Assembly: GCA_023819145.1 (NCBI GenBank)
Contig: JAMWCW010000007.1
Coordinates: 16,876 to 80,875, forward strand
Direction: 5' to 3'
From: Candidatus Omnitrophota bacterium
GTDB taxonomy: Bacteria; Omnitrophota; Gorgyraeia; DTHP01
Length of the DNA: 64,000 bases
This document shows, in pieces, positions 1 to 48,200 of this stretch; position 1 is the stretch's first letter, and each line of letters opens with the position of its first letter. A program made the position numbers and the translations under genes. The notes under the pieces are model-generated. The model worked only from the letters and a program-made list of their open reading frames with translations, was not told the DNA's origin and ran no database searches.

Positions 1-1010
1 TTGTTTTTTATTATATCACAGATAAAATAATAAGTCTTTTCTTGATTTAAATCTTTCTCGTCTATAAAAAAAAGACTGTTTCTTTGGCTATAATAGAGCG
101 CATTCAGAAACTGGTGCTTTTCGGCATAAGGATAGGGAATTACAACTGCGGGTTTGGCAAAAAAAGATAACTCATTCAAAGTAGAAGCACCTGCCCTTCC
201 AATAACTAAGTCCGCTGAGCTATAGAGGGCTCCCATATCTTCATAGAAGGGAAAAACTTTAGCAAGGATACCTAATTTTTTATACCTTTCCGCTACCCAT
301 TCTAAATCCTTTAAACCAGTAAGATGAATAATCTGTATTTTAATATTTTCTTTTATTATCTTCTCACATAGATTAAGAAAATAATTATTGATAACGTTTG
401 CCCCCTGACTACCTCCTAATATAAGAATAGTAAAAAAAGAGGCTTCAAGTCCAAGACTGGATAAAGCTTTTTCCCTATCCATAACTAATAAGTCCGGTCG
501 AAGAGGATTACCGGTAAATATAAGCTGGCTTCTTCTAAGATATTGTTTCGTATCTTCAAAACTAACCGCTATTACATTGGCAAAATAAGAAAGCAAACGA
601 TTTGCTTTGCCCGGATAAACATTCTGTTCATGAACTAATGTGGGTATGCGCAATAAGAAAGCAGAAAGAATCAAGGGTAAAGAAAGAATTCCTCCAAAGC
701 CCACTACTACTCGAGGATGAGAAAGTAAAACCAACAAGAACGAATAGATAACCCCTCGTATAGTATTAGAAATGAACCTAAACCATTCACAAAATCCTCC
801 CCTTTTAAAAGGAAAAATAGGAATGATTAATATCTTGATATTAGGAATTTTCTCTTTAATATAATTAGCTATCCTCTTTTCTTCAGCTCGCCCAGAAATA
901 ACAAACATAATCTCAAAAGATTTCTTTCTTTTTTGCATTTCGTAAACCAAGGCAAAAGCCGGAAAGAGATGTCCTCCACTTCCCCCTCCAACTACTAATA
1001 TTCTTTCCAT
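1..1010 (-). CDS. murG: UDP-N-acetylglucosamine--N-acetylmuramyl-(pentapeptide) pyrophosphoryl-undecaprenol N-acetylglucosamine transferase MurG (partial, C-terminus beyond window start)
   Basis: rc translation from ATG at 1008-1010 gives MERILVVGGGSGGHLFPA... (glycine-rich MurG N-terminus). In-frame to position 1 without stop. Position in dcw cluster after ftsW. Confidence 0.85.
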   Translation of the reverse strand, partial: MERILVVGGGSGGHLFPAFALVYEMQKRKKSFEIMFVISGRAEEKRIANYIKEKIPNIKILIIPIFPFKRGGFCEWFRFISNTIRGVIYSFLLVLLSHPRVVVGFGGILSLPLILSAFLLRIPTLVHEQNVYPGKANRLLSYFANVIAVSFEDTKQYLRRSQLIFTGNPLRPDLLVMDREKALSSLGLEASFFTILILGGSQGANVINNYFLNLCEKIIKENIKIQIIHLTGLKDLEWVAERYKKLGILAKVFPFYEDMGALYSSADLVIGRAGASTLNELSFFAKPAVVIPYPYAEKHQFLNALYYSQRNSLFFIDEKDLNQEKTYYFICDIIKN

Positions 1011-24282: not shown

Positions 24283-24361
24283 TGGTCGGGGAGGACGGAC
24301 TTGAACCGTCGACCTCAGCGTCCCGAACGCTGCGCTCTAAACCAAACTGAGCCACTCCCCG
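24283..24361 (-). tRNA. tRNA-Pro (anticodon CGG)
   Basis: rc is CGGGGAGTGGCTCAGTTTGGTTTAGAGCGCAGCGTTCGGGACGCTGAGGTCGACGGTTCAAGTCCGTCCTCCCCGACCA. It folds as a 79-nt cloverleaf with a 7-bp acceptor stem, anticodon loop TTCGGGA, T-loop TTCAAGT and an encoded CCA. Confidence 0.9.
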
Positions 24362-25765: not shown

Positions 25766-26860
25766 CTATTTTTTTATATAACCAGAAATTAAAAAATCAT
25801 CTCCTATCCTTTTTATCGCTGTATTTTTCAATAAAATTGCCTTATTCAATTTCTCAACACCTTCTCCTTCCACAGAAGTAATTGCCTCTCGACCTCCGAT
25901 TATTTTTGGACTAATAAAGAAATAAATTTTATCTACAAGTTTTCCCTCTAAAAAAGAAGCGATGGTTTCTCCCCCTCCTTCTACTAAAACATGGGCTATT
26001 TCTTTTTCAAACAATTTTCTCGCTAAAGTCTTTAAATCAACTCTGCCATCTTTATCATTAACTACTATAACTTCTGCCCTGTTTTTAAATTCTTGCATTC
26101 TTCTCTTAGGAGCATACTTTGTGGTAGCAATAATTAATTTCCCAATAGATTTTTCAGAAAGGACTCTTGCCTTAAGCGGCATCCTCAATCTTGAATCCAA
26201 AATAATCTTATAGTAAACCTTTGAATTTAGAGTTTTGAATGCAGGGTTTAAGAGAGGGTTATCTTTAATTATTGTATTTACCCCTACTACTACCGCATCT
26301 ACTTCGTTACGTAATTCCTTTGCAAATGTACGTGCCTTTTCCGAAGTAATCCATTTAGATTCTCCGGTCTTGGTAGTAATCTTTCCATCAAGACTCTGAG
26401 CAACTTTTACAATTATAAAAGGGATTCTTTGAGTAATGTATTTTACGAAAACCTCATTAATTTTCCTTGCCTCATCTTCTAAAATTCCTACCTCCACCTC
26501 AATCCCTTTTTCTCTTAATTCTTTTATTCCTTTCCCGTTATTTAGAGGATTAGGATCAACCATCGCCGTATAAACTTTTTTTATCCCTGCAGAAATTATT
26601 GCTTTGGTGCACGGAGGAGTTCTGCCATAATGACAACAAGGTTCAAGATTTACATATAAAACTGCCCCTTTTGCTCTCCCTCCCGCCTCTCTTAACGCTT
26701 CTATTTCTGCGTGAGGAAACCCTGCTCTTTTATGAAATCCTTTACCTAATATTCTTCCTTCTTTTACAATAACACAACCTACTAGCGGATTAGGGCTGGT
26801 AAGTCCTTTTGATTTCAGAGCCAGTTTAAAAGCAGTACGCATATAATCTTCGTGGTTCAT
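25766..26860 (-). CDS. ribD: bifunctional diaminohydroxyphosphoribosylaminopyrimidine deaminase / 5-amino-6-(5-phosphoribosylamino)uracil reductase RibD
   Basis: 364 aa. Deaminase zinc motif HAEIEAL...PCCHYGRTPPC. C-terminal reductase domain. Confidence 0.92.
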   Translation of the reverse strand: MNHEDYMRTAFKLALKSKGLTSPNPLVGCVIVKEGRILGKGFHKRAGFPHAEIEALREAGGRAKGAVLYVNLEPCCHYGRTPPCTKAIISAGIKKVYTAMVDPNPLNNGKGIKELREKGIEVEVGILEDEARKINEVFVKYITQRIPFIIVKVAQSLDGKITTKTGESKWITSEKARTFAKELRNEVDAVVVGVNTIIKDNPLLNPAFKTLNSKVYYKIILDSRLRMPLKARVLSEKSIGKLIIATTKYAPKRRMQEFKNRAEVIVVNDKDGRVDLKTLARKLFEKEIAHVLVEGGGETIASFLEGKLVDKIYFFISPKIIGGREAITSVEGEGVEKLNKAILLKNTAIKRIGDDFLISGYIKK

Positions 26861-27675
26861 CGTTCTTTAATCCTCTCTTTCATCTCCTTAACCCATTCAT
26901 AAGAAATTTTTATACTCCCCAGCTCTCTTTTCCCCTTTATTCCATGACAATCAGAACCTCCGGTAACCAAAAGAGAATATCTTCTTGCTAAATATAGATA
27001 ATGCTCAGTTATTAAAGAAGATTGGTCGGGATGATAAACTTCAATCCCTTCAATACCCTCTTTTACCAATTTTTCAATCAGTTCATCTTTATTCATCTTA
27101 TAAGGATGGGCAAGAACAGTTACTCCTCCTACTTCTTTAACCATTCTTATTGCTTCGTGGGGTAAAAGACGAAATCTTTGTACATAACAGGGTGCATGAT
27201 TACCAATATATCTAGAAAATGCTTCAGAAATACTTCTTACATAACCACGTTTTAATAAAACCTGTGCCAAGTGTAGTCTACCTACCGAGCCTTCTCTTTT
27301 TTCCGTCACAACCTCTTTATAGTCTATATTGATCCCAAAAGCATTGAGCTTTTCTACCATCCTATATATCCTTTTTTCTCTTGCCCGACAAAATTCTTTT
27401 AATCTATTAACAAAACTTTCTTCCTGATGATCTATGAAATATCCTAAAATATGGATCTCTTTATCATCAAGTTCAGTGGTCAACTCTACGGCAGGAATCA
27501 CTTCTAAAGAAGAAGCGTATCTAAAAAGATGAGGAATGGCATCTACACAGTCGTGATCAGTAACTGCAATACAAGAAAGTTTCTTCTCATTCGCTTTATT
27601 AACAATTTCCTTAGGTGTAAAAAAACCGTCTGAAAAAGAGGAATGGATATGAAGGTCAGCAAATTGTGTTTCCAA
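26857..27675 (-). CDS. PHP-domain (polymerase/histidinol phosphatase-like) metal-dependent phosphoesterase
   Basis: 272 aa. N-terminal DLHIHSSFSDG, plus further His/Asp metal ligands (HDCVD, GGSDCHG). Confidence 0.8.
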   Translation of the reverse strand: METQFADLHIHSSFSDGFFTPKEIVNKANEKKLSCIAVTDHDCVDAIPHLFRYASSLEVIPAVELTTELDDKEIHILGYFIDHQEESFVNRLKEFCRAREKRIYRMVEKLNAFGINIDYKEVVTEKREGSVGRLHLAQVLLKRGYVRSISEAFSRYIGNHAPCYVQRFRLLPHEAIRMVKEVGGVTVLAHPYKMNKDELIEKLVKEGIEGIEVYHPDQSSLITEHYLYLARRYSLLVTGGSDCHGIKGKRELGSIKISYEWVKEMKERIKER

Positions 27676-27676
27676 A

Positions 27677-28099
27677 TTAAATCTCTCTAAGTTTTTTTAT
27701 ATCTTCTTTAAAAATTTTATCCAGTATACCATTTATAAATTTAGGAGATTCAACATCGCCATATTTTTTGGCTAATTCTATCGCCTCATTAATCACTACT
27801 TTTGGAGGAACTTCTTTAATAGAATTTAGTTCAAAACAAGACATGCGCAGTATATTACGGTCAATAACTGCCATACGGGATATTTCCCAGTTTTGAGCAT
27901 ATTTCTTAATCAACGAATCTATTTTTTCAAGATTTGCCAGAGTCCCTCTAACCAAATTGTCCGCATATGCTCTAATTTCTTCATTTACATCTACACCTGA
28001 CCAAAAACTTTCTCTACCTTCCTCATAAGAAACTCGATTGACATCTGTCTGATAGAGACATTGTAACGCCATTTCCCGTGCCACTGTACGTTTACGCAT
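27677..28099 (-). CDS. nusB: transcription antitermination factor NusB
   Basis: 140 aa. [16 protein letters not shown]. Conserved ribH-nusB adjacency. Confidence 0.88.
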
Positions 28100-28751: not shown

Positions 28752-29954
28752 TTAAATAGACAATTGATGCCCTAATTTTTCTTTTTTTGCCTTCAAATAT
28801 CTCTTGTTGAAAGGAGAGGGAGAAATTTCAATGGGAACACGTTCGACAATTTTGAGACCATAACCCTCCAGACCTACAATTTTACGTGGGTTATTGGTAA
28901 GTAACCGAATTTCCCTAACTCCCAAATCAAAAAGAATCTGAGCACCAATTCCGTATTCTCTTAAATCGGCATCAAAACCAAGAGCAAGGTTTGCTTCCAC
29001 TGTATCTAAACCTTTATCTTGCAAAGCATAGGCTCTAATCTTATTTTCTAAACCAATCCCTCTCCCTTCCTGGAGAAGATAAAGAATTACCCCTCTTCCT
29101 TCGCGGGCAATCATCTCCATTGATTTATTCAACTGTTCACCACAATCACATCTTTTTGAACCAAAGATATCGCCAGTTAAACACTGAGAATGAACCCTTA
29201 CGAGAACAGGCTGGATGTTTTTCTCTAAATCCCCTCTTACTAAAGCAATATGTAGGGCTTTATCAATCGATGACTCATAGAGAACAAGTCTAAATTCACC
29301 ATAATCTGTAGGAATAACCGTTTCGCTCACTCTATGAACAGATTTATCGGAACGTCTCCGGTAAGCAATAAGTTCAGCTATGGTTCCAATCCTGAGGTTG
29401 TGCCTTTGTGCAAACTCAAAGAGTTCCCTTGTCCTTGCCATCGTTCCATCCTCATTCATAATTTCGCAAATAACTCCTGCAGGATAAAGACCCGCTAATC
29501 TCATCAAATCTACACACGCTTCCGTATGCCCTGCCCTAACTAAAACTCCTCCTTCTTTTGCCCGTAAAGGAAATACATGACCAGGCTTAACTAAATCTTT
29601 CGCAGCTGTCTGAGGATCAATCAAAACTTTAATAGTATGGGCGCGGTCGTGAGCAGAAATCCCTGTTGTAATATTATTTCTAGCATCAACAGAAATAACC
29701 CAGGCAGTCTTATACGTATCCTGTGGTTCTTCAGCCATGGGATATAATCCCAACTCATCTAAGCGCTCGCCTTCCATGGGCACACAGATTAAACCCCTCC
29801 CATATTTGGCCATAAAATTGATGTGTTCCGCTGTAATAAAAGAAGCAGCAACAATAAGGTCTCCTTCATTCTCACGGTCCTTATCATCGAGCATAATCAC
29901 CATCTTTCCCTGTTTCAAATCTTCAATAATCTCTTCTATAGTATTGAATTTCAT
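28752..29954 (-). CDS. ribBA: bifunctional 3,4-dihydroxy-2-butanone-4-phosphate synthase / GTP cyclohydrolase II RibBA
   Basis: 400 aa. N-terminal DHBP synthase ([21 protein letters not shown]). C-terminal GTP cyclohydrolase II (CxxC…C zinc site). Confidence 0.92.
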
Positions 29955-29970
29955 AAACCCCTTAATCCTC

Positions 29971-30004
29971 CAAAATAAAATGTCCCGAAGTTATCCTCGG
30001 GACA
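29971..30004 (-). terminator. intrinsic terminator of the FMN-riboswitch expression platform
   Basis: Minus strand reads UGUCCCGAGG-AUAA-CUUCGGGACA (10-bp stem) followed by UUUUAUUUUG. It lies between the aptamer and the ribBA start, and an SD (GGAGGA) follows it. Confidence 0.7.
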
Positions 30005-30090
30005 ATATTTTATAACCGAATTAATCTACGGTAAAGAGAAAACAACGATTATAAAATCTTCTCCCCTCTAGACTATATGCCGAATACAAT

Positions 30091-30302
30091 GGTTCTCTTC
30101 AATCCGGCATCCTGACTTTAGTCAGGACAATCGGCACTGGAATTTCACCAGTTCTGTCCCGGTGAATCGGGATTCGCGGGCTTTACCCCTTTAGAAAACT
30201 ATCCTTCTCCTAAATCAAAACTCTCAACTCCCTTAAACACTTCCTTTCTTTTCTAAAAGGGAAAACCGCCGGTCAGGATTTACACCTCCTGCCATAGAAG
30301 AC
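30091..30302 (-). ncRNA. FMN riboswitch (RFN element) aptamer controlling ribBA-ribH-nusB-PHP-ribD-ribE
   Basis: The minus strand carries the RFN hallmarks. 5' half: UCUUCUAUGGCAGGAGGUGUAAAUCCUGACCGGCGGU. Centre: AGCCCGCGA. 3' half: GGUGAAAUUCCAGUGCCGAUUGUCCUGACUAAAGUCAGGAUGCCGGAUUGAAGA. P1 is UCUUC/GAAGA. P3 is long (UCCCUUUUAGAAAAG…UUUUCUAAAGGGG). Confidence 0.8.
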
Positions 30303-30345
30303 TATGGCAGGTCTGCCATAGCAGATGTCCCGAAGATTTATCTAA

Positions 30346-30406
30346 ATTTTATCAAAAACAGGTTTGTTTGTCAAGCCTTGACAGAAATAAAAATTTTTGC
30401 TATATT
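30346..30406. promoter_or_regulatory. divergent sigma70-type promoters sharing a palindromic -35 region (TGTCAAGCCTTGACA)
   Basis: Minus strand: TTGACA (rc of 30369-74), 17 nt, then TAAAAT (rc of 30346-51), driving the riboswitch and rib operon. Plus strand: TTGACA (30378-83), 17 nt, then TATATT (30401-06), driving the GGDEF gene. Confidence 0.55.
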
Positions 30407-48123: not shown

Positions 48124-48200
48124 TGGTTGCGGGGCCCAGATTTGAACTGGGGACCTCAAGGTTATGAGCCTTGCGAGCTTCCGGACTGCTCCACCCCGCG
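48124..48200 (-). tRNA. tRNA-Met (CAT), initiator-type (fMet)
   Basis: rc is CGCGGGGTGGAGCAGTCCGGAAGCTCGCAAGGCTCATAACCTTGAGGTCCCCAGTTCAAATCTGGGCCCCGCAACCA. C1:A72 mismatch, A11:U24, anticodon CAT, encoded CCA. Confidence 0.88.

Follow-up and report, generated by a model that had tools for sequence, protein, structure and literature searches.

Typical FMN aptamers are about 140 nt long, and extended P3 stems are common among FMN riboswitches. The family model in Rfam (RF00050) has 138 positions. The RFN element of Bacillus subtilis ribD, which belongs to this family, is a six-helix aptamer with an extended P3 that precedes riboflavin biosynthesis genes. For the rib leaders of B. subtilis and L. 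lactis a long-range antiterminator has been proposed, with the 3' arm of P1 acting as anti-antiterminator (PMC8966005). Variant FMN riboswitches of subtypes 1 and 2 (Atilho et al. 2019) have a fold derived from the FMN aptamer, sometimes with an extended P3; in these variants, guanosines that contact the phosphate and ribityl groups are changed to adenosines, and the genes controlled mostly encode transporters (PMC6298564).

The window analysed here, a 64,000-nt stretch of an Omnitrophota contig, very probably encodes on its minus strand a transcription-terminating FMN riboswitch that controls ribBA-ribH-nusB-PHP-ribD and consists of a 118-nt canonical core with three lineage-specific expansions. 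Like the B. subtilis ribD element, it is a six-helix aptamer with an extended P3 in front of riboflavin biosynthesis genes, and its terminator 5' arm is complementary to the P1 5' strand and J1/2 (CUUCGGGG-type), as in a long-range antiterminator (PMC8966005). It differs from that element and from RF00050 in its length of 286 nt, in extra hairpins between J1/2 and P2 and in L6, in an 80-nt P3 extension, and in a score below the gathering threshold. Unlike the variants of Atilho et al., it keeps G10, G11 and the other conserved junction bases (J1/2 is GGGACA) and precedes biosynthetic genes, which places it outside both subtypes.

The riboswitch occupies the 5' leader of ribBA (28752..29954, minus strand), the first gene of the operon, which is followed by ribH, nusB, a PHP-domain gene, and ribD. 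The encoded RibBA shows 100% identity to a protein that carries the name bifunctional DHBP synthase/GTP cyclohydrolase II. The nusB (27677-28099, minus strand) and PHP-domain (26857-27675, minus strand) genes lie between ribH and ribD, an order that is the same in all close relatives.

Closure and limits of the aptamer

A whole-window Rfam scan at gathering level returned no FMN match (50.2 bits versus a gathering score of 66.2). Two tRNA genes, at 24286-24361 and 48127-48200 (-), are the only gathering-level matches in the window. In a permissive scan, RF00050 matched 30303..30094 on the minus strand over the full length of the model (50.2 bits, E 2.6e-10). The match agrees with an earlier, sequence-only reading of this DNA, which had recognized an FMN riboswitch on that strand and proposed an RF00050 search to fix its boundaries. 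The search found the element but reproduced the mis-closure of that reading and missed the outer P1. The Rfam alignment leaves 72 nt of the P3 loop as an insert and takes UCUUCUAU/AUUGAAGA, with one non-standard pair, as P1. We place the limits of the aptamer at 30339..30054 (minus strand, 286 nt), versus 30303..30094 for the Rfam model and the earlier reading, whose reported feature (30091-30335) cuts off both ends.

In the outer P1, a perfect inverted repeat of 8 nt, AAAUCUUC (30339-30332) pairs with GAAGAUUU (30061-30054), and both strands align with P1 of 11 relatives. This helix closes the minimum-free-energy fold of 30341-30050. Upstream is a promoter-like site (30346..30374, minus strand) comprising TTGACA, a 17-nt spacer, and a TG-extended TAAAAT (11/12 matches, TG present). 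Its -10 box stops 6 nt before the outer P1, with the same promoter-to-P1 spacing as in relatives, and the predicted transcript start, near 30339, falls at P1. After the promoter the minus strand reads AAAUCUUCGGGACA-UCUGCUAUGGCAGA-CCUGCCAUAGUCUUCUAUGGCAGG-AGGUGUAAAUCCUGACCGGCGG.... J1/2 (GGGACA, 30326..30331) is the same as in the relatives L083 and L081.

These orthologues identify the ends of the element. The compact aptamer of L083 and L084 (RibBA 85% identical) reads GAUCUUC-GGGACA-AGGUGAAAUUCCU-GACCGGCGGUAAAGCCCGCGA-...-GCCGAUUGUGAAAGUCUAGAUGGGA-GAAGAUC. In L083, where it is 119 nt long and scores 107.9 bits in Rfam, its ends also read GAUCUUC-GGGACA-AGGUG...GAUGGGA-GAAGAUC. The compact form shares with the window P1 and J1/2 (UCUUC-GGGACA), P2, J2/3, P5, J5/6, and the design of the terminator (UUGUCCCGAAG-UAAAA-CUUCGGGAUA in L083 and L084), and its core is 86% identical, but it has none of the three inserts. 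In L081 and L082 (RibBA 88% identical), which have the same synteny as the window (SMC / GGDEF / ribBA-ribH-nusB-PHP-ribD), the corresponding segments are AAUCUUC-GGGACA-(42 nt)-AGGUG... and ...GCCGAUUGU-(55 nt)-AUAGUCUAGAAGGGA-GAAGAUU. Because L083 and L081 carry the same ends, the latter with inserts after GGGACA and in L6, we conclude that the window aptamer is closed by the outer P1. Thus, the hairpin that the sequence-only reading had located 5' of P1 in fact lies downstream of the true P1 5' strand, whose partner GAAGAUUU falls outside the range given there. The first copy of the supposed duplication, UCUUCGGGACA, is genuine P1 and J1/2, identical to that in compact L083. At the 3' end, J6/1 (GAGGGGA, 30062..30068, minus strand) equals that of L088 and fits the consensus GAUGGGA; the P6/J6-1 segment of the window, AUAGUCUAGAGGGGA, agrees with L088 except at the site of the P6-loop insert.

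For a comparative assessment of closure, the inserts were removed by hand segmentation, with each segment checked as an exact substring of its source, and the resulting 118-nt core, of the six-helix FMN type, was aligned with 11 Omnitrophota aptamers. Under outer closure, 94.3% of cells in the 28 pairs of the canonical FMN structure are standard pairs, and both sides change in 17 of the 28; no shuffle (0/500) equalled the observed values, and sliding the partners lowered pairing to 35-55%. P2 (AGG-UGUAAAU-CCU, 30275..30287) is located by the Rfam match and the alignment of relatives, and P4 (30156..30173) and P5 (ACUGG-UGAAAUU-CCAGU, 30136..30152) by the Rfam match and the covariation test, all on the minus strand. 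All 45 columns that are invariant in the relatives-only alignment (A2) are kept in the window, including GG in J1/2, ACCGGCGG, CCGCGA, AGA, GCCGA, and GA..GGA in J6/1. The junction nucleotides that contact FMN are G10, G11, G32, A48, G62, G84, A85, and A99 in 3F2Q numbering (PMC6298564). With A2 columns assigned to these numbers by inference from the consensus and not by structural superposition, the FMN-contacting nucleotides appear to be retained under outer closure, with G10 and G11 corresponding to invariant columns in J1/2.

The sequence-only reading had instead proposed that P1 is UCUUCUAU (30301-30294) with AUUGAAGA (30101-30094), and that the hairpin upstream is a leader element competing for the start of the aptamer, in a leader that arose when the 5' end of the riboswitch was partly duplicated in tandem. 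The Rfam alignment has this closure, UGCCAUAG is able to pair with either copy of CUAUGGCA, and UCUUC is present twice. Yet when the Rfam closure is added to the alignment as an extra row, J1/2 becomes GGCAGG instead of GGGRCA, which puts a C at the G11 equivalent, and J6/1 becomes GAUGCCGG instead of GAKGGGA; the columns broken in this way are invariant or nearly so in A2. An altered ligand pocket is suggested only by this wrong closure. The inner P1 also contains a U-U mismatch and would require a 10-bp hairpin (hairpin b, below) to melt, whereas the outer P1 has eight perfect pairs and starts at the predicted transcript start. Moreover, L081 has the same insert architecture and lacks the inner-closure option, and the complement that forms the antiterminator fits the outer strand, not the inner one. 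We regard the inner closure as extremely unlikely.

Our own clade covariance model (R1), run with filters off, did not recover the outer closure of the window and chose AUGGCA/UGCCGG; the Rfam matches in L081, L005, and L007 likewise begin within an insert. Given that both models mis-close the window, a covariance-model score is unable to decide between the closures. The P6-loop insert contains a segment, AAAGUCAGGAUGCC...GAAGA, that looks like a genuine L6-P6-J6/1-P1 segment, and we attribute the attraction of the covariance model to the wrong closure to this resemblance. Relatives with inserts also have sub-threshold scores (57.8-65.8 bits), versus 91.7-107.9 bits for compact relatives, and the low score of the window is explained by its three long inserts and the resulting mis-closure. 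Outer closure is supported by comparative alignment and thermodynamics and not by a covariance-model score.

Hairpins between J1/2 and P2

The insert between J1/2 and P2 (30325-30288, minus strand) comprises two hairpins. Hairpin a (UCUGC-UAUG-GCAGA, 30312..30325) is predicted in every fold, and hairpin b (CCUGCCAUAG-UCUU-CUAUGGCAGG, 30288..30311), with 10-nt arms that are 100% complementary, adjoins P2. The sequence-only reading had correctly noted a perfect 8-bp hairpin here, CUAUGGCA-GACC-UGCCAUAG (30321-30302, minus strand), and a segment, CUAUGGCAG, that occurs twice (30321-30313 and 30297-30289). This hairpin pairs the 3' side of a with the 5' arm of b. The assignment of CUAUGGCAGG to the start of P2 has to be revised: it is the 3' arm of the inserted hairpin and ends just before P2 (AGG, 30287-30285). 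The two hairpins are indeed partly similar, but what resemble each other are a and b within the insert; the 5' end of the riboswitch has not been duplicated.

Comparison with relatives places these hairpins inside the aptamer and not in a competing leader outside it, as had been supposed. The two-hairpin insert between GGGACA and AGGUG recurs in L081, the site is occupied by one hairpin in L005 and L007 (RibBA 67% identical to that of the window), and all three aptamers close with the outer P1. In L081 the hairpin a site is UCUACCA-AUAAAA-UGGUAGA, with a G-C to A-U compensatory change, and hairpin b is CCUGCCAC-GAGUGG-GUGGUAGG. The single hairpins are CCUGCCGC-UGAACCUU-GUGGCGGG (L005) and CUCCAGAC-UGCAAUG-GUUUGGAG (L007). 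All pairs of hairpin b are standard in the four sequences, including that of L007, which differs from the others at 5 of 8 pairs. MAFFT alignment of hairpin b alone put the stems out of register, and pairs were tabulated by script instead. Overall, pairing is kept through compensatory or wobble changes in 4/4 sequences for b and in 2/2 for a, the covariation of a being that of two sequences, as L081 is the sole close relative with a two-hairpin insert.

The same compensatory changes speak against the competing hairpin as the main fold, since they preserve a (UCUGC/GCAGA) and b (CCUGCCAUAG/CUAUGGCAGG), for which the predicted energy is -23.4 kcal/mol, versus -11.4 kcal/mol for the alternative. 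With 8 bp in the window, 5 bp in L081 (with the same GACC loop), and no means of forming in L005 or L007, the alternative is a weaker pairing inside the a/b insert and at most a transient co-transcriptional intermediate. Conceivably, such an intermediate could make the insert a kinetic element, in which the alternative hairpin forms first during transcription, later gives way to a and b, and thereby times when J1/2 docks or when the antiterminator strand becomes available. The formation of the alternative in both the window and, weakly, L081, the conservation of AGACCUGCC between these two, and the location of the insert directly beside the regulatory strand are consistent with this idea. However, the a and b stems already account for the conserved bases and are more stable by 12 kcal/mol, L005 and L007 have hairpin b only and hence no alternative, and no comparative signal favours the alternative pairing. 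A kinetic role of this kind seems quite unlikely.

Hairpins at this site are the one unusual feature of the window riboswitch. Among 34 other complete FMN aptamers, which are those found by our clade model in the fetched loci and come from many phyla, 31 have the canonical CUUCNGGG-to-P2 spacing; the exceptions are L081, L005, and L007, all from Omnitrophota. The four carriers, including the window, all score below the Rfam gathering threshold (50.2, 59.3, 60.0, and 57.8 bits). A metagenome DNA pattern scan for the J1/2-P2 insert gave no matches. The papers searched gave no description of a J1/2-P2 hairpin, a feature that may be new. Vitreschak et al. in 2002 reportedly mentioned an 'additional stem-loop', which might correspond to the J1/2-P2 site.

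It is unlikely, in our estimate, that the J1/2-P2 hairpins are a functional extra helix, as opposed to a tolerated neutral expansion, that gave the junction of one Omnitrophota lineage seven or eight arms in place of six. If they were, the a/b toggle could be a folding timer that gates the docking of the phosphate-binding J1/2, or alternatively the insert could be a site for a second factor. We also considered a loop-loop kiss between UCUU in the b loop and GAAGA in the loop of hairpin d of the P6 insert, but rejected it, as L081 does not conserve it and a tetraloop is sterically unlikely to make such a contact.

Expansions of P3 and P6

P3 (30176..30269, minus strand) has the pairing GCGG/CCGC, an L3 core of UAAAGC, and an 80-nt extension (30265-30186) closed by the base helix CCCUUUUAGAAAA/UUUUCUAAAGGGG, which bears out the earlier description of P3 as unusually long. 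The base helix is homologous to CCCCGUUAGAAAA.../...UUUUCUAACGGGG in L088 and L089, and pairing is kept in 3/3 sequences with one compensatory and one wobble change. P6 (UUG/CUA, 30069..30130, minus strand) has a loop that is split by an insert (30126-30077) of two hairpins, c (CCUGAC-UAAA-GUCAGG, 30126-30111) and d (AUGCCGGAU-...-AUUCGGCAU, 30110-30077), followed by AUAGU. The c and d insert is common to L081 and L090, with compensatory changes that keep pairing in 3/3 sequences; in L090, hairpin d pairs over the basal 7 pairs only, and its arm lengths differ. A metagenome DNA pattern scan for the hairpin d/L6 junction gave no matches.

Between the window and L081, identity is 89% in the spliced core, 60-64% in the inserts, and 54% at third codon positions of ribBA. 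The inserts have thus drifted in sequence but kept their helices. This pattern bears on whether the element could be a decaying relic, its aptamer inactivated by the inserts and the operon effectively constitutive or controlled by the terminator only. Decay would fit the sub-threshold Rfam score, the position of one insert beside ligand-contacting nucleotides, and the complete loss of the riboswitch in close relatives (L085-L087, L091, L092). Decay is nevertheless very unlikely given that 45/45 invariant core columns are kept, all 8 bp of P1 are perfect, neither terminator nor antiterminator is damaged, and compensatory changes keep the insert helices as loops diverge, with core identity well above that of the third codon positions.

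A mobile-repeat origin of the window inserts was considered and rejected, as there are no further copies within the 64-kb window. L089 has a 357-nt FMN aptamer with a 194-nt P6-loop insert (L089 1185-1378), the first 65 nt of which are 88% identical, inverted, to a segment about 310 nt upstream (L089 810-877). The riboswitch loop of L089 thus seems to have received a small dispersed or palindromic repeat, and, because the insert holds a local inverted copy, we conclude that some expansions in the Omnitrophota clade derive from local repeats. Large peripheral inserts also occur in P4 of L090 (1086-1384) and in L2 and, with about 130 nt, P3 of L006 (2668-2941). L005 and L007 have inserts in L5, and in these two aptamers the 2-bp junction helix co-varies (CG/CG to UG/CA).

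Expression platform and occurrence in the clade

Downstream of the aptamer is an intrinsic terminator (29972..30004, minus strand), UGUCCCGAGG-AUAA-CUUCGGGACA followed by UUUUAUUUU, that is conserved in relatives. An 11-nt exact repeat, CUUCGGGACAU, occurs at 30335-30325 and 29990-29980, and CUUCGGGACA is present at the riboswitch 5' end as well, where it is complementary to the terminator 5' arm. Because the terminator 3' arm copies the P1 5' strand and J1/2, the terminator 5' arm, UGUCCCGAGGAU (30004-29993), forms a 12-bp complement of AUCUUCGGGACA (30337-30326). In 14/14 Omnitrophota leaders the terminator 5' arm is the best downstream duplex partner of P1-5'/J1-2, with energies of -12.7 to -20.4 kcal/mol, the window duplex being at -20.4 kcal/mol. 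From lineage to lineage the two strands change together, as in CUUCAGGG with CCCUGAAG. The window arrangement is the classical FMN antiterminator, and its control logic is ordinary.

By analogy with the family, binding of FMN would allow P1 to form, and the terminator (30004-29981) with its U tract would stop transcription. In the absence of FMN, the free P1 5' strand and J1/2 (AUCUUCGGGACA) would form a 12-bp antiterminator helix with the terminator 5' arm (UGUCCCGAGGAU). For the window element, FMN binding and switching are predicted, and any role of its inserts is putative. Folds constrained to either state differ little in energy (P1 plus terminator, -124.2 kcal/mol; antiterminator, -128.0 kcal/mol), as would be expected for a switch tipped by its ligand. 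GAGAAGA, from the end of J6/1 and the P1 3' strand (30062-30054), can pair with UUUUCUC in the spacer downstream (30039-30033). The resulting hairpin appears in the unconstrained and the antiterminator-constrained folds and may sequester the P1 3' strand when the switch is ON.

Not all members of the clade have this control. No FMN riboswitch precedes ribBA in L085, L086, L087 (about 2389-2500), L091, L092, L094, or L095. Riboswitch-less leaders, from genomes with RibBA 85% and 75-76% identical, have an intergenic region of 112-116 nt with nothing but a promoter and a Shine-Dalgarno sequence. Regulation by the riboswitch is thus dispensable in the clade, as in L085-L087, and its absence from close relatives indicates that it was lost or gained repeatedly. 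The palindrome TGTCAAGGCTTGACA (30369-30383) contains, back to back, the -35 box of the rib promoter (minus strand) and that of a divergent promoter-like site (30378..30406, plus strand) for the GAF-GGDEF gene. L081, L085, and L087 have this palindrome too, some of them being relatives without the riboswitch. On another Omnitrophota contig, L072, a c-di-GMP-I-GGC riboswitch (RF03167, 67.5 bits; 61-149, minus strand) adjoins ribBA.

Overall, the architecture, conservation, and complementarity of the window element are those of a known kind of riboswitch in expanded form, its uncommon feature being a hairpin or hairpin pair between J1/2 and P2. For annotation, FMN riboswitches with long inserts score below the Rfam gathering threshold, and those that are detected are mis-closed by covariance models. 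Taken literally, such a mis-closure yields a false altered ligand pocket (C at G11) or a false upstream regulatory hairpin. The J1/2-P2 hairpin beside the phosphate-binding guanosines and the hairpin pair inside the L6 T-loop mark sites where the FMN fold appears to accept large insertions, and these sites may help engineering and the construction of better models.
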